Below, one piece after another: positions 47,531 to 56,213 of a stretch of DNA of 64,000 nt. The first letter of the stretch is position 1. Each line of letters starts with the position of its first letter. The stretch comes from Candidatus Shapirobacteria bacterium (GTDB taxonomy: Bacteria > Patescibacteriota > Microgenomatia > UBA12405). The translations under genes and the position numbers were made by a program. The stretch spans positions 69,867-133,866 of the forward strand of contig JBAYIT010000002.1 of assembly GCA_041665485.1 (NCBI GenBank). The letters run 5' to 3'. The notes under the pieces are model-generated. The model was not told the origin of the DNA. It worked only from the letters and a program-made list of their open reading frames with translations, and ran no database searches.

Positions 47531-47772
47531 GTAAAATCATTAAGATCACCTTTGTCGTTATTCTTATTCTGGAGCTGACCTTCTCTATTATCTATTCTCA
47601 AATAATAGTTGAGTTAAACGGGCTGTTTCAACAATCCCAAAGCCAAGTTTCTCAAGCCAACGAACTCAATCTTGATTTAACTCAAAAACTATCAGAAATT
47701 ACCTCAATCAAATCTCTCTTGGCCAGTAGTTCAGCTAAAAATTTAAAGCCAATAACCAATGTTCTCTACTAG
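47527..47772 (+). CDS. ftsL: cell division protein FtsL-like (single TM plus coiled coil)
   Basis: 81 aa. N-terminal TM (ITFVVILILELTFSIIY) then a Q/L-rich coiled coil. Sits between rsmH and ftsI with 4-nt overlaps. Confidence 0.45.
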   Translation: MSKIIKITFVVILILELTFSIIYSQIIVELNGLFQQSQSQVSQANELNLDLTQKLSEITSIKSLLASSSAKNLKPITNVLY

Positions 47773-49342
47773 AGTTGGCTCTTTATCTGTTGCCATTATC
47801 ACTAGTTTTATTGTTATATTAGGCCGAATTATTTACTGGCAGTTTTACACTCCAACCAATCTTCGTCGTCAAGAAACCAGCCAAAACTATAGTGATCACC
47901 AAATAGACGAAAATCAAGGAAAAATATACTACAAAGACCATTCTCTCCTGGCTGGAAACAAAAGGGTATACAAATTATCTCTTTATAAACCAAATCTAGA
48001 TAAACCAATTGAAGATGTCCGTCTAATCCTTGAAAAGGAGATCACCAACCTTTTGCCTCAAGATAAAATTCGTCTCCGTTCAATTGTGGAGAAACCAAAC
48101 CTCAAGTGGGTTGACTTTGAAACCGAGATCACCAAGGAACAATATCAAAAAATAAGCACCATTGCCGGCCTCGAATTCAAATCAAAAACTAGTCGTTATT
48201 ACCCCGAGTCGGATTTGTCTCAAAATCTCTTTTTTGGTATAGAAAGCTACTATCGCCGACAACTCCAAGGAAAACCAGGATACTTTTATTCCAATCAGGA
48301 CGCTCTCGGATTACCGGTTTTAACTCAGCATTCATTATATATCGAACCAGTTGACGGTCTCGATCTATCTACGTCTATTGACCGAAGAATACAGTATTTA
48401 ACTGAAACCACCATCGCCGACGGCATCAATAAATATTCCGCTGACTCGGGAATGGCAATTGTTCTGGACCCTCAGTCAGGAGCCGTTTTAAGCCTCGTCA
48501 GTCTTGAGTCTAGCCCTTCTGCTAACCAAAACTCAAAGCTAATTGATCCAATTAGTCATCTCTTTGAACCAGGCTCAATTTTCAAACCATTAGTTGTTGC
48601 TGCCGCTCTCGATTCCAATTCCATCAGCGATGATTATGTCTGCCCCAAATGCGATCAACCATTTATTGCCAGCGGTTTCTCCATCAACAATTGGGACAAA
48701 TCTTTCCACCCCAACACTGACATTAAAGACATTATCAAAAATTCTGACAATATTGGTATGAGTAATATTGTCTTTGTTCTCGGCCAAAAACAATTTCTTA
48801 AGTATTTTAACCTTCTTGGTTTGGACAAAAAAACCGGCATTGACCTCCCCAGTGAAAATATCTCTCCAGTCAAATCATACTGGTCTGACATTGATCTGGC
48901 CACCGCCTCCTTCGGCCAAGGGCTTGCGGTTACCCCCATTCAAATGATTCAGGCCTTCAACTCTCTGGCCAACTCCGGCAAAATCGTTCATCCTCACATC
49001 AATCTTAATAACCCAATTAAGCCACCCATCAAAGTTTACTCTGAAAACACCGTCGAAAAAATAAATCAGATTCTTTCCTACGCCGTCAACAACGGAGTTG
49101 TCTCCCAATTCAAACCAAAAGATCTTGATGTTTGTGCAAAAAGTGGCACTGCTCAGGTCGCCATAAACGGACAATATTCCGACAACTCTTTCATCGCCTC
49201 ATATATTGGCTACTCTCCCTGTCGCCATCCCAAATTTACTTTACTCATAACCCTCTCCAATCCCAAAAGCTCGTCTTGGGGATCAAGTACTGCTGCCCCT
49301 TTGTGGTTCTCGTTAGCGGAAAAAATAGACAAACTGCTATAA
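47759..49342 (+). CDS. ftsI: penicillin-binding protein 2B/FtsI-type transpeptidase
   Basis: SxxK (GSIFKP), SxN (NSDNIG) and KSG(T) (AKSGTAQV) transpeptidase motifs. N-terminal TM and dimerisation domain. Confidence 0.85.
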   Translation: MFSTRVGSLSVAIITSFIVILGRIIYWQFYTPTNLRRQETSQNYSDHQIDENQGKIYYKDHSLLAGNKRVYKLSLYKPNLDKPIEDVRLILEKEITNLLPQDKIRLRSIVEKPNLKWVDFETEITKEQYQKISTIAGLEFKSKTSRYYPESDLSQNLFFGIESYYRRQLQGKPGYFYSNQDALGLPVLTQHSLYIEPVDGLDLSTSIDRRIQYLTETTIADGINKYSADSGMAIVLDPQSGAVLSLVSLESSPSANQNSKLIDPISHLFEPGSIFKPLVVAAALDSNSISDDYVCPKCDQPFIASGFSINNWDKSFHPNTDIKDIIKNSDNIGMSNIVFVLGQKQFLKYFNLLGLDKKTGIDLPSENISPVKSYWSDIDLATASFGQGLAVTPIQMIQAFNSLANSGKIVHPHINLNNPIKPPIKVYSENTVEKINQILSYAVNNGVVSQFKPKDLDVCAKSGTAQVAINGQYSDNSFIASYIGYSPCRHPKFTLLITLSNPKSSSWGSSTAAPLWFSLAEKIDKLL

Positions 49343-49354
49343 TTTAGCCATATC

Positions 49355-50572
49355 ATGCCTTCTATTAGAAAAATAAAAAATATCTTTTGGCATTTACCCA
49401 AAGCCGTTGTTGCCAACATCATTTATCAGTTTCCCAGTCGCCACCTTAAATTAATTGCCGTTACTGGCACCGATGGCAAAACTACTACCGCCACCCTCAT
49501 TCACCATCTCTTAAAAAAATCAGGAATTAAAGTCGGGCTGATTACCACTGTCACCAGCCCGGGTTTACACACCACTTCTCCTGACTCGCTAATTGTCCAA
49601 AAAGTCTTATCTGACTATTTTCACCAGGGTTATAGTCATGTTATTCTCGAAGTTACTGCCCATGCTCTTGACCAATTTCGCTTCTGGGGTTGCCACTTTC
49701 AGGTTGGAGTTTTAACCAATATCACTCACGAACATCTCGACGAATTCAAAACCATGGAAAATTACACCGCCGTCAAAGCTAGTCTCTTTTCCTCCTGCCA
49801 AACCGCCATTCTCAATAAAGACGATCCGTCTTTTCCGCAAATAAAAGCAAAATTTCCAAAAAAAATCATTCCCTACAGTATTAAATCACCCTGTAAATAT
49901 CAGGCTAAAAATATCCATCTTACCTCAAATTCCATTACCTTTACCGCCAATAGGCTAAAGATAGTCACCGACAGCCCTTATCGTTATCAAATTTACAACA
50001 TTCTTCCAAGTCTTATAATCTCTGACCTTTTCAAACTAAAGCGGTCAAGTTTTCAAAAAAATATCGCCGTTTTTCCTCACATCTCCGGACGCAGACAAGA
50101 GGTCAACAATCGTTTTGGTTTCAAAACTATTGTTGATTTTGCCCACACCCCCAATGCTCTCAAAAACACTCTTGAATCTCTCAAGAAAAAAAGGGGGAGC
50201 AAAATAATTGTTATCTTTGGAGCCACCGGTGGCCGAGACCAATCCAAACGTCCGCTTATGGGCAAGGTCGTTTCTGAATTGTCTGATATTGCCATCATTA
50301 CCTCCGACGACACCAGAAGTGAAAACATCTCCGTCATTAATCGTCAAATAATCTCCGGAATCACAAAAAATAAGAAATTCAAATATTATCAAATCGAAAA
50401 CCGTCAAGAGGCTTTTAATTATGCTGTTAGTATTGCCAAAACCAACGACATCATTATCGCCTGTGGCAAAGGTCACGAACAAACCATTCTCCTCGGTAAT
50501 ATCGAATACCCCTGGTCTGAAACCGCCGCCTTTCAAACCGCCTTCAAACTAAGAAGTCAAAAACATGACTAA
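49355..50572 (+). CDS. murE: UDP-N-acetylmuramoyl-L-alanyl-D-glutamate--diamino-acid ligase (MurE) lacking the N-terminal UDP-binding domain
   Basis: IYQFPSRHLKLIAVTGTDGKTTTA aligns to the E. coli MurE domain-2 start (FYHEPS..LVGVTGTNGKTTT). C-terminal GGRDQSKRPLMG and TSDDTRSEN correspond to MurE GGDRDKGKRPLMG and TDDNPRTEE. Only about 30 residues precede the P-loop; there is no room upstream for domain 1. Confidence 0.75.
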   Translation: MPSIRKIKNIFWHLPKAVVANIIYQFPSRHLKLIAVTGTDGKTTTATLIHHLLKKSGIKVGLITTVTSPGLHTTSPDSLIVQKVLSDYFHQGYSHVILEVTAHALDQFRFWGCHFQVGVLTNITHEHLDEFKTMENYTAVKASLFSSCQTAILNKDDPSFPQIKAKFPKKIIPYSIKSPCKYQAKNIHLTSNSITFTANRLKIVTDSPYRYQIYNILPSLIISDLFKLKRSSFQKNIAVFPHISGRRQEVNNRFGFKTIVDFAHTPNALKNTLESLKKKRGSKIIVIFGATGGRDQSKRPLMGKVVSELSDIAIITSDDTRSENISVINRQIISGITKNKKFKYYQIENRQEAFNYAVSIAKTNDIIIACGKGHEQTILLGNIEYPWSETAAFQTAFKLRSQKHD

Positions 50573-51155
50573 ATATAATCTAAAACCATCCAGTCCAGAC
50601 CCTGCCACAAACTATGCTCTTGGTTTACTCCCTCAAAGAAACGTGGCCCACCTCTGGTATCAGGACACCAGTTGCCGATCTAATCTTTCAAAATTTAAGC
50701 TTTCCTCAGAAAACAAAAGAATAATAAAATTAACCGGCGATTTTGAATTCGAAAAAATACCTTTATTAAAATTTAACCTATCATCAAGTCTCCTAAACAC
50801 CATAAACACCTGGTCTGAGACCCTGGACTGGCAATTTCCCAAAAGCTCAATTAGAAATGTTTTTACTCACCACATCTTCAATTATCTTTACCTCTGGAAA
50901 AAAACAGGCAGTCAGAATGTTGTTGCCTATTCTGTCTGTTATTTTGATCAAAACATCTCTCATATCGCCTACGTTTTTTATCACCCCAGTCTGGCCCGAA
51001 CCAATCTTCCCATCAGGCTGACTCTTCAATCCATTATTGATAGTCAAAAATTGGGGCTAAAATATTGTTATCTTGGTCGTTTCAGTCATTACAAACGCAA
51101 CTTTCCCGGATTTGAACATTATCAAAATCAAATCTGGTCGGATTACCGCCACTAA
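50565..51155 (+). CDS. hypothetical protein; weak resemblance to aminoacyl-tRNA-protein transferase (ATE_C/Bpt, Fem-like fold) C-terminal region
   Basis: 196 aa. The C-terminal YCYLGRFSHYKRNFPGFEHYQNQIW recalls the ATE/Bpt YLGY..KM.YK..F.P.E...W region. The match is from memory only and weak. Confidence 0.25.
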   Translation: MTKYNLKPSSPDPATNYALGLLPQRNVAHLWYQDTSCRSNLSKFKLSSENKRIIKLTGDFEFEKIPLLKFNLSSSLLNTINTWSETLDWQFPKSSIRNVFTHHIFNYLYLWKKTGSQNVVAYSVCYFDQNISHIAYVFYHPSLARTNLPIRLTLQSIIDSQKLGLKYCYLGRFSHYKRNFPGFEHYQNQIWSDYRH

Positions 51156-51159
51156 CAAC

Positions 51160-52461
51160 ATGAAAATACACATTTTAGGTATCGCCGGAACTAAAACAGC
51201 CCCCCTTGCCATTCTTTTGCAAAGAATGGGCCACCAAGTTAGTGGTTCTGATCAGCCACAAATTTTTCCCCCCATCAGTACCCTGCTTGCTAAAAACAAA
51301 ATCCCTATCAATTCCACTCCCATCACCAAAGAAATTGATCAGGTTATTGTCGGCAACTCTTTTAAATCATTCCAACTTTGTCAATCAGAATACCAACAGG
51401 CACAAAAGCTTAAAATCCCCACCATGTCTTACACCCAGTACCTAATTAGAAATCTTATTAAAAAACAATCAATACTTGTTGCCGGATCTTATGGTAAAAC
51501 AACTATCACTGGTTTATTATCGTTTGTTTTTCTTAAACTTAAACTTGACCCGTCGTATATGTTTGGTGGCCAAGCGGTAAATCATCTCGAATCAACCAGA
51601 TTCGGTCAGTCTGATTTTTCAATTATCGAAGCCTGTGAGTCTATAAACGGACTAGATACCCAGTCAACATTCCTATATTATCCAATTAAGTACGTCATAT
51701 TGACATCCGCCGATTGGGAACATAAAGATTCCTTTAAAACCGAACAAGAAAATTTAAAAGCATTTATTCAACTGGTTAGTAAAATCCCTAAAAATGGCCT
51801 ACTTGTCTATAACCCCAAAAGCAAATCAGCCTCATCAGTCGCCCAATACTCTTCGGCCAAAAAAGTACCGTACAACTACTCTTTAAACATAAACCCGATT
51901 ATTCCCGGAAAATATAACTTCGAAAACTCACTTGCAGTGGCTACTCTCTGCCAAGAATTAGGGTTGAATAAAATCGCATTCATCAAAGCCATTAATCAAT
52001 TCCGAGGAATTAAACGTCGATTAGAACCTATTTACCACCACAAAGACATATTGATATACGACGATTTCGCCCAATCTCCGGTAAGAATAAGCCAAGCGCT
52101 TCAAGCTATATCCGAAAAACATCCAAACTGTCCGATCAAAGTTTTTTTCGAACCTCATGCCTCCTTTCTTCAATACCAAGCCGGAATTAAAGGTCTTAAA
52201 GAATCTCTCCAAATAGCCACTGAAATTATTGTTTCGCCATTAAAATTTTCTGAAAGTGTCTCTAAATCAGACAGAGTAACTATTAAGGACTATCAAAAAA
52301 TTCTTGAAAAAAAAATGGAATACATTCCCGATTACCAATTGATTTCCCAACATTATCTTCAAACACTTCAAAAGGGGGATATCTTAATTCATTTTAGCTC
52401 CGGAGGCCTTAATGGCCTTACTTGCTTAAAAAAGATTGCTAAAAACTTAATTTCCCGATAA
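51160..52461 (+). CDS. MurC/Mpl-family UDP-N-acetylmuramate--amino acid/peptide ligase, Mpl-like
   Basis: Start at ATG 51160. MKIHILGIAGT..LAILLQRMGHQVSGSDQPQIFPPISTLL resembles Mpl (MRIHILGICGT..GHEVTGSD..YPPMSTLL). P-loop LVAGSYGKTT, GQSDFSIIEA, YDDFAQSP (compare Mpl YDDFAHHP). Confidence 0.65.
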   Translation: MKIHILGIAGTKTAPLAILLQRMGHQVSGSDQPQIFPPISTLLAKNKIPINSTPITKEIDQVIVGNSFKSFQLCQSEYQQAQKLKIPTMSYTQYLIRNLIKKQSILVAGSYGKTTITGLLSFVFLKLKLDPSYMFGGQAVNHLESTRFGQSDFSIIEACESINGLDTQSTFLYYPIKYVILTSADWEHKDSFKTEQENLKAFIQLVSKIPKNGLLVYNPKSKSASSVAQYSSAKKVPYNYSLNINPIIPGKYNFENSLAVATLCQELGLNKIAFIKAINQFRGIKRRLEPIYHHKDILIYDDFAQSPVRISQALQAISEKHPNCPIKVFFEPHASFLQYQAGIKGLKESLQIATEIIVSPLKFSESVSKSDRVTIKDYQKILEKKMEYIPDYQLISQHYLQTLQKGDILIHFSSGGLNGLTCLKKIAKNLISR

Positions 52462-52470
52462 CATTAACCA

Positions 52471-53505
52471 ATGACTCATCTTTTTCTCGGTCTGCTCCTC
52501 TTTTCTTTTTTAACCACCAGCATTCTCGTTGTCCCTTTCATAAATCTTCTCTACCGCCTTAAATTTCAACGTCAGAACCAAAAAACAGTTGACTTCCAGA
52601 ATAAAAAAACTGAAATATTTGATAAGTTTCACTCTCAAAAACAGGGGACTCCTGTCGGTGGTGGCCTCCTCATTATTCTTTCCGTCTGCCTTCTTTTCAT
52701 TATTCTTCTTCCTATTCTAAAATTTGCTCGTATTTTTATCTCCTCTAACTACCAAATGGAGAGTGAACTGGGCATAATTTTCTTCTCTTTCATTAGTTTT
52801 GCTCTTCTCGGCCTATATGATGATGTTCACAAGTTTTTCGGCTTCCAAAAAACAGGCTTTTTTGGATTGAAGATGCGCCAAAAGCTACTTCTCCAAATTT
52901 TTTTGGCCACCGTTATTTCTTGTCTAATTTACTTCCAACTAGGAATTAACTTTATTTACATCCCCTTTGCTGGAGCTGTTAGTCTTGGTCTGTTTTTTAT
53001 TCCCATAAGCAGTGTTATTATCGTTGCCTTCGCCAACTTCTTCAATATTACTGACGGGCTTGACGGCCTTTCCTGCGGGCTTTTAATGATTTCTCTTTTT
53101 GCTTTTTGGTTTCTTAGTAGCAACTCTCTGGATACTCCAATTTCTCTCTTTCTTAGTCTGTGGCTGGGAGCATTAATTGCCTTCCTGTATTTCAATGTCT
53201 TTCCCGCCCGCATCTGGCTGGGCGACGTCGGCTCTCTCTCCTTTGGAGCCACCTTTGCCGTCATCGCCATTCTTCTCGGAAAAATTGTCCCTCTTATTAT
53301 TGTTGGCTCACCCTTCATTATTGAAGGCCTTTCCAGTGCTATCCAGATTATTAGTAAGAAATATTTTAATCGAAAAATATTCCCTGCCGCTCCCATCCAC
53401 CTCACCCTCCAACATTTTGGTTGGGAAGAGCCAAAAATCGTTCTTCGTGCTTGGCTTGCCGGTATTATTCTCGCTATCTTTGGCCTATGGCTCGGACTAA
53501 ACTAG
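52471..53505 (+). CDS. mraY: phospho-N-acetylmuramoyl-pentapeptide-transferase
   Basis: NITDGLDGL and WLGDVGSLSFGATFA are MraY signature motifs. 10 TM segments, 344 aa. Confidence 0.9.
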   Translation: MTHLFLGLLLFSFLTTSILVVPFINLLYRLKFQRQNQKTVDFQNKKTEIFDKFHSQKQGTPVGGGLLIILSVCLLFIILLPILKFARIFISSNYQMESELGIIFFSFISFALLGLYDDVHKFFGFQKTGFFGLKMRQKLLLQIFLATVISCLIYFQLGINFIYIPFAGAVSLGLFFIPISSVIIVAFANFFNITDGLDGLSCGLLMISLFAFWFLSSNSLDTPISLFLSLWLGALIAFLYFNVFPARIWLGDVGSLSFGATFAVIAILLGKIVPLIIVGSPFIIEGLSSAIQIISKKYFNRKIFPAAPIHLTLQHFGWEEPKIVLRAWLAGIILAIFGLWLGLN

Positions 53506-54194
53506 AAAAATTACTAACAGAAGAGGTCAATCATTATTTAGGAATTCCGTATGCTAAAAACTACTGGAAAAACAACCTCTTAATTAAAGAGGCTATTCTT
53601 GGTGGCAAAGGAACCTGGCCGGAAATTGACTACGCCACCACTTGCGCCGGAGAAAAATACCAAGTTGACATCACCTCTCTATCACCCAAAGAACTCTATA
53701 ATTTTCAAAAAAAACACAAGATCGGCATCGATTGCTCCGGTCTCGTCTACCACCTACTCGATTTCATCGATAAAAATATTGGCGCAAATGGCATTCTATT
53801 TAAAGTTGTCAGTGTTAATCCTAATCATGGCAAATATGGCGTTAGGTCACTATCAGCCGACAGCCTCACCAATTCTATAAATTCTTACCCCATCACCAAT
53901 TATTCTCATGTTCAGCTCGGAGATTTAATTCGCCATCATCAAGGCAAGCACACTCTCCTTATTACCGGCCAAAAGAACAACCGCCTCAACTATGTTCACA
54001 GTAGTCTCACCACTTTAGTTTCCGGAGTTCACACCGGCTATATCAAAATAATTGACCCTCAAAAACCACTTTTTTACCAAGATTGGACCGATGTCACTAA
54101 AAACCACCAAAAATATCAGGAACTTTCTGACTCCAAAGCCGGGGACGGCATATATCGCCTTAATTGCTGGAAAAATATTACTTTTCCTCTATAA
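53487..54194 (+). CDS. NlpC/P60-family (papain-like) cell-wall peptidase/amidase-like protein
   Basis: Start at ATG 53487, overlapping the mraY 3' end by 19 nt. GIDCSGLVYHLL is the NlpC/P60 catalytic Cys motif. A downstream His-containing region (HVQLGDLIRHHQGKH) follows. Confidence 0.5.
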   Translation: MARTKLEKLLTEEVNHYLGIPYAKNYWKNNLLIKEAILGGKGTWPEIDYATTCAGEKYQVDITSLSPKELYNFQKKHKIGIDCSGLVYHLLDFIDKNIGANGILFKVVSVNPNHGKYGVRSLSADSLTNSINSYPITNYSHVQLGDLIRHHQGKHTLLITGQKNNRLNYVHSSLTTLVSGVHTGYIKIIDPQKPLFYQDWTDVTKNHQKYQELSDSKAGDGIYRLNCWKNITFPL

Positions 54195-54345
54195 GTTCTC
54201 GATATTTAGATGGGTCTAAAGATAATATCTCTACTTCCGTTCCACATTCTTGGCACTCTAAAATGTCGCCAACTTCCAGCAATCCTTCTGTTTTTTTAAT
54301 CTCCATTCCGCAATCTGGGCAAATAATTTTTTTGTTTTGGTCCAT
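54178..54345 (-). CDS. LysW-like C4 zinc-ribbon small protein (55 aa), not in the supplied ORF track
   Basis: Reverse complement translates to MDQNKKIICPDCGMEIKKTEGLLEVGDILECQECGTEVEILSLDPSKYRELIEEK. The CPxCG...GE...C.ECG.E.E...LDP pattern mirrors LysW/ArgW amino-group carrier proteins (CPECGAEL..GELVVCEDCGAELEVVGLDP). The C-terminus is EEK, not the canonical ..EDWGE. Confidence 0.45.
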   Translation of the reverse strand: MDQNKKIICPDCGMEIKKTEGLLEVGDILECQECGTEVEILSLDPSKYRELIEEK

Positions 54346-54378: not shown

Positions 54379-55167
54379 ATGACACCTTTAATCAAATTCG
54401 AAAACATCTACTTTAAGAGGGAAGATCAAAACCCTACCGGGTCGGCCAAAGATCGAAGCCTTCCACTGCAACTAAAAAATCTTCTTGCTAAAAACTATCA
54501 ATCAGCTGTCATCTCATCTTCTGGTAACGCCGCCATCTCTGCTATCTTTTATTGTCGAAAACTAAATATTCCTCTCAAAGTCTTTCTTTCTCCACAAACT
54601 GATCCTTACAAATTAAAATTAATTCTCTCTCAACATCAGGATGTCACCCTTACTCCATCTCCCAATAGTCTGGCTTTTAAATACGCCAAAACTAACCATT
54701 CATATCTCCTGCGTCAATCAACCGACCCTGTTGCCCAAATCGGTTACTCCACTATTGCCACCGAAATAGTTTCCAAGCTCCCTCTTGTTTCCAGCATCTT
54801 TATACCTGTTGGCTCCGGAACCACTCTCCTTGGCGTCTCCAAAAATTTACCCCAAAACGTAAAAATATTCGCCGTAGAACCGGCCTCTCGCTACGGCCAA
54901 GAATCAGAAACTATCACCGACGCACTATCTGTCAAACTAACCCCTCTTAAATCAGAAGTCGCCGAAGCTATTAAAAAACATCACGGGTCAAATATCATCG
55001 TAAGAAACCAAGCCGTTTTAGATAATCTAAAAAAACTCCATCAACATCAAATAAACACTTCTCCCGAAGGCGCTCTTGCTTTAACAGGCTATTATCAAGC
55101 CAAAACAAAATTTGAAGTTGGAGACTACCCCGTTATTTTATTAACTGGCATTAATCGCCAAATATGA
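54379..55167 (+). CDS. fold-type II PLP-dependent enzyme, cysteine synthase/CBS (CysK)-like, short (262 aa)
   Basis: FKREDQNPTGSAKDRSL is the PLP-lysine motif (CysK E..NPxGSvKDR, threonine synthase NPTGSFKDR). SSGNAAISAIFYC matches TSGNTG. A Gly-rich loop PVGSGTTLLG is present. Confidence 0.6.
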   Translation: MTPLIKFENIYFKREDQNPTGSAKDRSLPLQLKNLLAKNYQSAVISSSGNAAISAIFYCRKLNIPLKVFLSPQTDPYKLKLILSQHQDVTLTPSPNSLAFKYAKTNHSYLLRQSTDPVAQIGYSTIATEIVSKLPLVSSIFIPVGSGTTLLGVSKNLPQNVKIFAVEPASRYGQESETITDALSVKLTPLKSEVAEAIKKHHGSNIIVRNQAVLDNLKKLHQHQINTSPEGALALTGYYQAKTKFEVGDYPVILLTGINRQI

Positions 55168-56213
55168 AAAAACTAATCCAACTAATTATCAACTCTGGCT
55201 ACACTATCATTTATCCTCAGGTCGACGAATTCCTCGGAATTGATTTCCCCCAACTTAATTGCTTTCATTCTCTCAAAAATGAATCAAAAACAGTAAAAAA
55301 TACTGGCCAATTTCTTAAATCAAACCTGAAATTCATAAGTCAGGAATTTAAACCGCCAATCGCCATCATGCCTTTCAAACCATCAGCCAAAACCGAAAAA
55401 ATTTGCCAAAAGCAAAATTGGCTGGTTCTAAGCAATCCCGCCAAATTAAATCGTCTACTGGAAGACAAAATAAAATTCAGCCAACTTTGCCACCAACACA
55501 AACTCCCCACCATCCCCCATCTTGTCGCTCCACTCGATCAAGAAAATTTTCTTTTGGCTCAAAAAAAATTTGGCCCGAAACTCGTTCTTCAAACTCACTT
55601 CGGCTGGGCCGGCAATAGCACCTTTTATTTTGAAAGTTATCAGGAAATCGCCAATAAAATTTCCCCAAACACCCTTTGTAAGTTTTCACCCTACCTGGAG
55701 GGCTACACTCTCATTAACAACTGCTGTCAAACAAAATTTGGTCTAATTCAAAGCCCAGTTGGCCGTCAACTTACCGGCCTTAAAGAATATACCCAAAACC
55801 CTTTTGCCACTGTTGGACGTCAGTGGCCCTCTCTTGCTCCTCAATCTGTTATCAATCAGGTGGTTGAGGTTACTAAACTACTATCCGACAAATTGCTAAA
55901 AAAATACGATTATCGTGGTTTTTTCGGAATAGATTTTTTTGTCCACCAAAACCGAGTTATGATTCTTGAAATTAATCCCCGATTAACCGCCTCATTTGGT
56001 TTCTACACTAAACTCGAAACGGATAACAATATCACCCCTCTTTTCCTCTTTCACTTAGCCGAATTTCTTAACCTTGATTATCAGGTCGATTTTGATCGAG
56101 AACAGTCAAGAACTGACTCCTCTTTAATTGTTGGCACCGAAATAACTCCCAAAGACAAGTTCGGTAAAACCATTGCCCAATACCACCAGACTTCCCCTAT
56201 TATCAAGGATTAG
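55164..56213 (+). CDS. ATP-grasp family ligase (RimK/LysX/Ddl-like), specificity unknown
   Basis: LEDKIKFSQLCHQHKLPTIPHL (central domain) and RGFFGIDFFVHQNRVMILEINPRLTAS (C-terminal Mg/ATP site) are generic ATP-grasp motifs. It lacks the Ddl N-terminal HG..GEDG signature. Confidence 0.55.
   Translation: MKKLIQLIINSGYTIIYPQVDEFLGIDFPQLNCFHSLKNESKTVKNTGQFLKSNLKFISQEFKPPIAIMPFKPSAKTEKICQKQNWLVLSNPAKLNRLLEDKIKFSQLCHQHKLPTIPHLVAPLDQENFLLAQKKFGPKLVLQTHFGWAGNSTFYFESYQEIANKISPNTLCKFSPYLEGYTLINNCCQTKFGLIQSPVGRQLTGLKEYTQNPFATVGRQWPSLAPQSVINQVVEVTKLLSDKLLKKYDYRGFFGIDFFVHQNRVMILEINPRLTASFGFYTKLETDNNITPLFLFHLAEFLNLDYQVDFDREQSRTDSSLIVGTEITPKDKFGKTIAQYHQTSPIIKD

Follow-up and report, generated by a model that had tools for sequence, protein, structure and literature searches.

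A Two-Domain MurE Homolog Without the Uridine-Binding Domain in the Cell Wall Gene Cluster of Candidatus Shapirobacteria

The stretch of DNA considered here (the window) comprises 64,000 nucleotides (64 kb) of contig JBAYIT010000002.1, positions 69,867 to 133,866 of the forward strand, from the Candidatus Shapirobacteria assembly GCA_041665485.1. It contains a division and cell wall (dcw) gene cluster in which murE (49355..50572, + strand) encodes a homolog of uridine diphosphate-N-acetylmuramic acid (UDP-MurNAc)-tripeptide synthetase, the ligase that adds the amino acid at position 3 of the peptidoglycan stem peptide. [quoted passage not shown]

A murE gene without domain 1

Directly 5' of murE lies ftsI (47759..49342, + strand), which encodes a class B penicillin-binding protein of 527 amino acids with a complete transpeptidase domain. 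It ends with TAA at 49340-49342, and a spacer of 12 nucleotides (49343..49354, + strand) separates this stop from the murE ATG, which, according to the list of open reading frames (ORFs), is the first possible start codon after the in-frame stop. The two genes are in one frame and are parted by the single TAA and four codons (49340-49357); therefore, at most four extra codons are open 5' of the ATG and, as the original prediction had stated, an N-terminal domain cannot be encoded there. The spacing is similar in relatives, 12-19 nucleotides at loci L083, L084, and L003, and two independent assemblies carry the identical locus.

Pfam recognizes Mur_ligase_M (residues 36-221) and Mur_ligase_C (residues 246-373) in the product and nothing else; the N-terminal domain PF01225, which spans residues 1-88 in E. 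coli MurE, has no match, and 37 residues precede the P-loop. The MurE family model TIGR01085 is matched with 338.8 bits against a cut-off of 257.3, residues 17-394 corresponding to model positions 71-468 of 472. The equivalog model for diaminopimelate (DAP) ligases, NF001126, is narrowly missed (351.2 bits, cut-off 373), as expected, because about 90 model positions are absent. Alignment to MurE structures places residue 19 opposite residues ~96-98 of Escherichia coli MurE (1E8C/7B6O) and residue 134 of Mycobacterium tuberculosis MurE, confirming the domain-1 deletion that had been proposed from the sequence alone. The best match among solved structures is Thermotoga maritima MurE (E 9.9e-53), whose residue 88 aligns to residues 16-19 of the Shapirobacteria protein. 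In an AlphaFold2 model built from 58 homologs (mean predicted local distance difference test score, pLDDT, 90.7), the N-terminus forms a single helix at residues 4-23. A Foldseek search with this model returned MurE structures first, with template modeling scores of ~0.82-0.87 when normalized by query length and 0.63-0.73 when normalized by target length, a gap to be expected if the match is confined to domains 2 and 3.

Domain 1 was also sought with a profile of 88 positions built from 43 long MurEs. In the window, all six frames were without a match to this profile (best E 0.68), as were 19 short-form loci from the Candidate Phyla Radiation (CPR). As positive controls, it matches every listed long MurE locus and the MurFs downstream of them, with E values from 1e-15 to 1e-40, and it also matches a long-form Patescibacteria locus (L012). 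A highly divergent domain 1 that is still present was rejected, as only 37 residues lie 5' of the P-loop and residues 4-23 form one helix in the model. Supply of the domain by a small separate ORF, which had been suggested originally for the genome at large, was likewise rejected for the vicinity of the gene, the profile having found nothing of the kind in the window or at the 19 short-form CPR loci.

Several other identities for the murE product were considered and rejected. Its score for MurT is 31.9 bits against a cut-off of 800, and the cluster carries no glutamine amidotransferase (gatD) gene; its scores for FolC (47.9 bits, cut-off 162.65) and Mpl (33.6 bits, cut-off 388.7) are similarly low, and the family scores also rule out a cyanophycin synthetase or a pseudomurein ligase.

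Active-site residues, the N-terminal helix, and the DDTR motif

The Shapirobacteria protein shares with canonical MurE (E. coli 1E8C, M. tuberculosis 2WTZ/2XJA, Staphylococcus aureus 4C12) the family, the fold, and the usual dcw place directly after ftsI, as well as the P-loop, the magnesium ligands, the carbamyl-lysine position, the domain-2 contacts to the MurNAc-peptide, and the GKGHE loop. It differs in that all of domain 1 (about 90 residues comprising the uridine pocket and the diphosphate loop) is missing, in that it has a conserved amphipathic N-terminal helix, and in that DDTR replaces DNPR/DNPA. The P-loop, GTDGKTTT (residues 38-45; 49466..49489, + strand), contains K42 and T43, which correspond by alignment to K157 and T158 of M. 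tuberculosis MurE. K141 (49775..49777, + strand), aligned to the lysine of E. coli 'EAAKWLLY', occupies the carbamylated-lysine position of Mur ligases and is kept in nearly every MurE compared; together with the ATP P-loop and the magnesium-binding Glu and His (E99 and H127), it is present in the product. The GKGHE loop (residues 371-375; 50465..50479, + strand) is invariant, and its E375 is the counterpart of E. coli E468. Across the 58 homologs, the invariant positions are T37-T44, E99, T101, H103, Q107, R109, H127, K141, H264-P266, R294, D295, K298, R299, D318, D319, R321, E323, and G371-E375.

The domain-2 substrate pocket, assigned by alignment and invariance, comprises T74, S75, E99, T101, H103, Q107, and R109 (49574..49681, + strand). 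Its residues T74, S75, T101, and R109 align with Thr195, Thr196, Ser222, and Arg230 of M. tuberculosis MurE and are invariant or nearly so in the 58 homologs. In the M. tuberculosis enzyme, these pocket residues contact the MurNAc-L-Ala-D-Glu part of the substrate (PMC6736417). In S. aureus MurE, domain 1 provides the uridine nucleoside site only and the product is bound mostly by domain 2 (PMC3829189). The Glu of the GKGHE loop (E468 in E. coli) and the Asp of the specificity motif bind the incoming amino acid by its amino group (PMC3829189). Judged from these alignments, the enzyme appears to be without nucleotide recognition, yet to have kept its MurNAc-peptide, ATP, and amino-acid sites.

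The N-terminal helix (residues 4-23; 49364..49423, + strand) carries the pattern K-x-K-N-x-x-W-H-L-P-K and is located where domain 1 would join domain 2. Residues 3-14, which include Lys and Trp, are amphipathic, with a hydrophobic moment of 0.65 and a mean hydrophobicity near zero. In the alignment of the 58 homologs, which is at the level of Shapirobacteria, no change is seen at K8, N9, H13, or P15, and W12, L14, and K16 show strong conservation; N9 and H13 also reach at least 90% conservation in distant short forms. H13 is 25 residues before the P-loop Gly, and its position, as read from the sequences, is taken in long forms by the conserved Arg in '(D/N)xRxAL', the element with which domain 1 closes. 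Residues 12-23 are placed by AlphaFold2, with high confidence, as the usual first helix of domain 2. We infer that the N-terminal helix takes the place of domain 1. In that role, it might touch the diphosphate, rest on the membrane, or serve as the docking site of a partner.

The specificity motif is located in domain 3. As the original prediction had read it, the motif is DDTR (D318, D319, T320, and R321; 50306..50317, + strand) within TSDDTRSEN (residues 316-324), and it is the counterpart of DNPR in E. coli (residues 413-416) and DDPR in T. maritima. In the textbook account, D-N-P-R denotes meso-DAP and D-N-P-A/N denotes L-Lys. Relative to the canonical motif, DDTR retains Asp1 and Arg4, has Asp in place of Asn2, as in T. 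maritima, and has Thr in place of Pro3. Arg416 of E. coli has been said to mark meso-DAP enzymes (PMC6736417). In S. aureus MurE, A409R gained no DAP activity, P408A was the most active of the motif mutants, and the motif was described as 'not the only element' of MurE specificity (PMC3829189). The nearest characterized relative is T. maritima MurE (4BUB), which was deposited as an L/D-lysine ligase; it resembles the Shapirobacteria protein in motif Asp2 and Arg4 (TTDDPRGED as compared with TSDDTRSEN) but has domain 1 and, at motif position 3, Pro rather than Thr.

Comparison across the loci showed that the motif differs from lineage to lineage. Among the 120 closest homologs, 118 have DDTR and 2 have DDLR. 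DNPR is found in the classical DAP-type phyla, EDPR in Chloroflexota and many CPR, DDTR in the Shapirobacteria clade, EDYR in Roizmanbacteria and relatives, and EDDR in Saccharibacteria, among them Nanosynbacter with its short MurE; some other CPR have EDTYG, EEPY, or EESY. An unusual position-3 residue, which the original prediction took the motif to suggest, therefore has little in its favor, as the Asp and Arg contacts are kept and the DDPR enzyme of T. maritima is closest. On sequence grounds, DDTR is a clade-specific variant compatible with Lys or DAP and does not in itself speak for an exotic residue, and the Lys type (as in Thermotoga) and the meso-DAP type are not separable at this level. 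As a separate observation, in CPR motifs that have lost the Arg (EDTYG, DDTH, EEPY, EESY, and DDPY), the GKGHE loop mostly becomes G[VMI]G[HD]Q; examples are representatives P0136, P0148, P0163, P0164, P0180, P0203, P0255, and P0269 and loci L004, L027, and L078. This suggests a remodeled amino-acid pocket in those lineages, not in the gene described here.

Short MurE and MurF across the Candidate Phyla Radiation

The original prediction treated the truncation as a peculiarity of one gene. However, the short form is conserved across much of the CPR, and MurF is shortened likewise in relatives. The 120 closest homologs of the Shapirobacteria MurE (52-77% identity) are all 397-442 amino acids long, have the Pfam M and C domains only, and begin their P-loop at residues 35-49. 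Among 139 well-aligned representatives at 50% identity, 77 are short forms, with alignments starting at query residue ~4-10. In a scan of species-representative genomes, 38-60 codons were open 5' of the P-loop in 15 CPR loci (Beckwith-, Davies-, Roizman-, Berkel-, and Saccharibacteria and unclassified Patescibacteria). Two further Saccharibacteria loci have 92-97 open codons, neither stretch matching the domain-1 profile, and in one of these loci (L024) the extra stretch partly overlaps a neighboring gene on the opposite strand. A WWE3 member is also short; of 10 clusters of distant short forms, it belongs to the single one that bears a taxon name. The short form stands within the dcw cluster of complete or near-complete CPR chromosomes, namely an 820-kb chromosome (L013) and an 804-kb contig (L014).

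In contrast, nearly all non-CPR relatives, including Chloroflexota, Clostridia, Bacilli, Bacteroidota, Chlamydiae, and others, have at least 100 residues before the P-loop, as does the Patescibacteria genome L012. One locus labeled Listeria aquatica (L046) has 74 open codons before the P-loop, unlike other Bacilli, and this short frame is probably a frameshift or sequencing error in the assembly. Four metagenome-assembled genomes labeled 'uncultured Gammaproteobacteria' or 'Pseudomonadales' (L004, L008, L014, and L037) carry a CPR-type short MurE with the N-terminal motif; the mraW-ftsI-murE context is CPR-like in L004, L014, and L037, while L008 begins at murE. The taxonomic labels of these four look wrong.

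The truncation extends to MurF. In Daviesbacteria, a MurF of 387-425 amino acids, aligned to the MurF model only from position ~64-73, is encoded next to the short murE and is truncated N-terminally as MurE is (L013 5825-7021; L019 5739-6902; L006 5755-7032). The MurF of L013, with 398 amino acids, covers model positions 64-416; residue ~32-47 of the short MurF aligns to residues ~88-112 of full-length MurFs, and the 120 closest homologs are 392-420 amino acids long with the M and C domains only. These MurFs of Daviesbacteria and other Microgenomates thus show the same kind of truncation at another step, the addition of D-Ala-D-Ala, and they carry a basic pair or stretch and a His 24-25 residues before the P-loop Gly, at the same distance as in the short MurE. 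MurC of the same CPR lineages, and the MurC-like protein encoded in the window, retain the N-terminal domain. A MurB-like ORF of 195 amino acids lies between murE and murF in Daviesbacteria (L013 5178-5765; L019 5158-5742), and that of L013 is the N-terminal flavin adenine dinucleotide-binding half only of UDP-N-acetylmuramate dehydrogenase (model positions 14-172 of 303).

[quoted passage not shown] FolC has a comparable architecture of two domains, an ATPase domain and a dihydrofolate reductase-like domain. Unlike FolC or the proposed ancestor, however, the Shapirobacteria protein falls within MurE by sequence, and its distribution argues for secondary loss rather than for the ancestral state. 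The MurE domain-1 profile matches MurF N-terminal domains, and the domain therefore predates the duplication of MurE and MurF; moreover, the Chloroflexota relatives and L012 keep it. The CPR short forms are thus best read, from these comparisons, as secondary and parallel losses of domain 1.

A large bacterial radiation seems to carry out the MurE and MurF steps with enzymes that have no UDP-binding domain. This would mean either that these enzymes can do without nucleotide recognition or that the organisms use a different carrier. The CPR forms show that a two-domain state is viable, which bears on the proposal of a two-domain Mur ancestor, and the short form provides a simple sequence marker for CPR-type peptidoglycan synthesis. 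The gene alone is ordinary and typical of the family in its lineage; it is the pattern at the level of the family that is moderately surprising. In the open-access full-text literature searched, no description of an N-terminally truncated MurE or MurF in CPR was found, and database annotation names the short proteins MurE without comment.

Substrate, carrier, and the surrounding cluster

The gene in the window probably encodes a functional two-domain MurE that is typical of Candidatus Shapirobacteria, acts as the position-3 ligase, and has lost the uridine-binding domain secondarily. The reaction would be that of ordinary Mur ligases: ATP would be bound by the P-loop between domains 2 and 3, the γ-carboxylate of D-Glu in MurNAc-L-Ala-D-Glu would be activated as an acyl phosphate, and this acyl phosphate would be attacked by a diamino acid that D318, R321, and E375 of domain 3 hold in place. 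The amino acid added would be a diamino acid of the length of lysine or diaminopimelate. The domain with the uridine site and diphosphate loop would have been lost secondarily in CPR, from MurE as well as from its paralog MurF, and would have been replaced by about 15 extra residues that lengthen the first helix of domain 2 into the conserved amphipathic helix. The conserved pocket of domain 2 would then hold the substrate, the diphosphate lying close to the basic and His residues of the new helix, and pocket and helix together may compensate for the missing uridine site.

Several points weigh against this interpretation. MurT, the only characterized Mur homolog that acts on a muropeptide and has no N-terminal domain, uses a lipid-linked substrate (PMC6113224). 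MurE and MurF have lost the domain and MurC has kept it, a pattern that could reflect a change of carrier after the MurC and MurD steps. The genes murD, murF, and ddl were not found in the window or in the 10 kb beyond each of its ends. As for the secondary loss, the neighbor-joining tree (Kimura distances) is too crude for counting losses; short and long forms interleave in its EDPR group, and its topology is untrustworthy.

The dcw cluster is conserved in three Shapirobacteria species whose MurEs are 55-58% identical. Its order is mraW, ftsL, ftsI, murE, a gene for a 196-amino acid protein, a MurC/Mpl-like ligase, murA (in one species), and mraY, followed by an NlpC/P60-like gene, a LysW-like gene on the opposite strand, a pyridoxal phosphate (PLP) enzyme, an ATP-grasp enzyme, ftsW, murG, ftsQ, ftsA, and ftsZ; in the ftsQ slot there is no Pfam-recognizable gene, and none is called in L083. 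Only two Mur ligases are encoded in the window, MurE and the MurC/Mpl-like protein.

The alternative that survives best, although it is unlikely, is that the membrane is where the short MurE acts, as would the truncated MurF of relatives, with undecaprenyl pyrophosphate-linked MurNAc-L-Ala-D-Glu as the substrate and MraY (52471..53505, + strand) taking its turn sooner than textbooks have it. In that case, a domain for UDP binding would serve no purpose and would collide with the membrane, on whose surface the amphipathic N-terminal helix would rest. The strongly amphipathic character of residues 3-14 noted above, the loss of the uracil and diphosphate sites with retention of the MurNAc-peptide contacts, and the loss of the domain by MurE and MurF but not by MurC all fit this idea. 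However, the mraY in the window looks ordinary, and we know of no MraY that prefers a dipeptide precursor. CPR proteins are often shortened with unchanged function. Furthermore, residues 12-23 form the normal first helix of domain 2 in the AlphaFold2 model, so that only about 10 residues are free for another role. MurT itself acts on a muropeptide without an N-terminal domain, its short N-terminus being of 37 residues, the same number as precede the P-loop here, and its authors argued that MurT has no need of the domain, which would collide with the membrane, given that the diphosphate is located where the N-terminal and middle domains meet (PMC6113224). By analogy, MurT would be a better precedent than a free-peptide ligase if the substrate is non-canonical. 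MurT differs, nevertheless, in that it amidates D-Glu together with GatD, uses lipid II, and has a zinc-ribbon insertion and a DNAAD motif, while no gatD lies near the gene described here, whose family score identifies it as MurE and not as MurT.

A wider form of this idea, drawn by analogy with MurT, is rather unlikely: the MurE and MurF steps of CPR would be uncoupled from the UDP carrier, two-domain ligases tethered by their helix would lengthen, at the membrane, a MurNAc-dipeptide that is linked to a lipid or otherwise free of a nucleotide, and the Shapirobacteria dcw cluster would be rewired more broadly. Such rewiring would take in the aminoacyl-tRNA-dependent transferase downstream of murE, the MurC/Mpl-like ligase in the murF slot, and a trio of genes between mraY and ftsW, for a LysW-like zinc ribbon (54178-54345, - strand), a short PLP enzyme (54379-55167, + strand) that has serine racemases as its best solved relatives (E 6e-14), and an ATP-grasp enzyme (55164-56213, + strand) without a sequence match in the PDB. 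This trio sits where murD or ddl would be expected and is kept in the three Shapirobacteria species.

It is quite improbable that the enzyme uses a UDP-linked substrate only within a complex, with MurD, MurF, MurG, MraY, or the 196-amino acid neighbor, in which the helix would dock and which would hold the nucleotide or channel the intermediate. Mur ligases have been reported in complexes and as natural MurE-MurF fusions (PMC10214165), and several proteins of MurE-MurF fusion length occur among the representatives compared here. The invariant polar residues of the N-terminal helix are typical of a specific interface, and the start of the gene for the 196-amino acid protein (50565..51155, + strand) overlaps the murE stop by 8 nucleotides. 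However, no carrier of a MurE/F-type N-terminal domain was found in the window or at the 19 short-form CPR loci, and the gene 3' of murE varies among CPR lineages (ATE-like, GlmU-like, PgeF, or half-MurB), so that no conserved adjacent partner is evident. The 196-amino acid protein shows weak ATE_C/arginyltransferase similarity and belongs to a small family (453 matches), in which the organism names attached are Shapirobacteria only. Its AlphaFold2 model (pLDDT 93.5) has as its sole structural relatives ATE1, MprF/aaPGS, Sba18, and FemX, all aminoacyl-tRNA-dependent transferases, and we would guess from this fold that it is a candidate Fem-like enzyme for branching of the stem peptide at the position-3 amino group.

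A ligase whose acceptor for the diamino acid is free L-Ala-D-Glu or some other nucleotide-free compound, the peptide being attached to UDP-MurNAc later by the MurC/Mpl-like neighbor, is highly improbable. This neighbor (51160..52461, + strand) is divergent, has an intact N-terminal domain, and occupies the usual murF slot; it matches the mpl model (160.6 bits) as well as the murC model (210.6 bits, below the cut-off of 335.1), is 23% identical to Beckwithbacteria MurC, and has the MurC 9IR5 and the Mpl 3HN7 as about equally good solved relatives. The absence of both murD and murF from the cluster would also suit such a route. However, many CPR clusters with a short murE carry an ordinary murC-murB pair or an adjacent murF, and the architecture is therefore independent of an Mpl-like gene; in addition, the positions at which long MurEs contact the MurNAc-peptide do not vary here. 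The original prediction had put forward a free peptide or a partner, and nothing was found to favor either, given these invariant contacts, although both retain the low probabilities expressed above. A pseudogene or a spare paralog, either of which had been named originally as a ground for refutation, can practically be set aside, and so can an artefact of the assembly or a wrongly called start, given the agreement of two independent assemblies, the in-frame stop four codons 5' of the ATG, the synteny in three species, the hundreds of conserved homologs of the same length with invariant catalytic residues, and the short form in the dcw cluster of the L013 chromosome and the L014 contig.

Of the remaining genes, the one after mraY (53487-54194, + strand) encodes a 235-amino acid protein with no family match, whose counterpart in a relative has a faint match to NlpC/P60. 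Finally, about 43 kb of the window 5' of the dcw cluster (680-43937) contains genes for glycosyltransferases, methyltransferases, an ATP-binding cassette exporter, DUF4012, and Bac_transf proteins; this is a large surface-polysaccharide locus, which also adjoins the dcw cluster in relatives.

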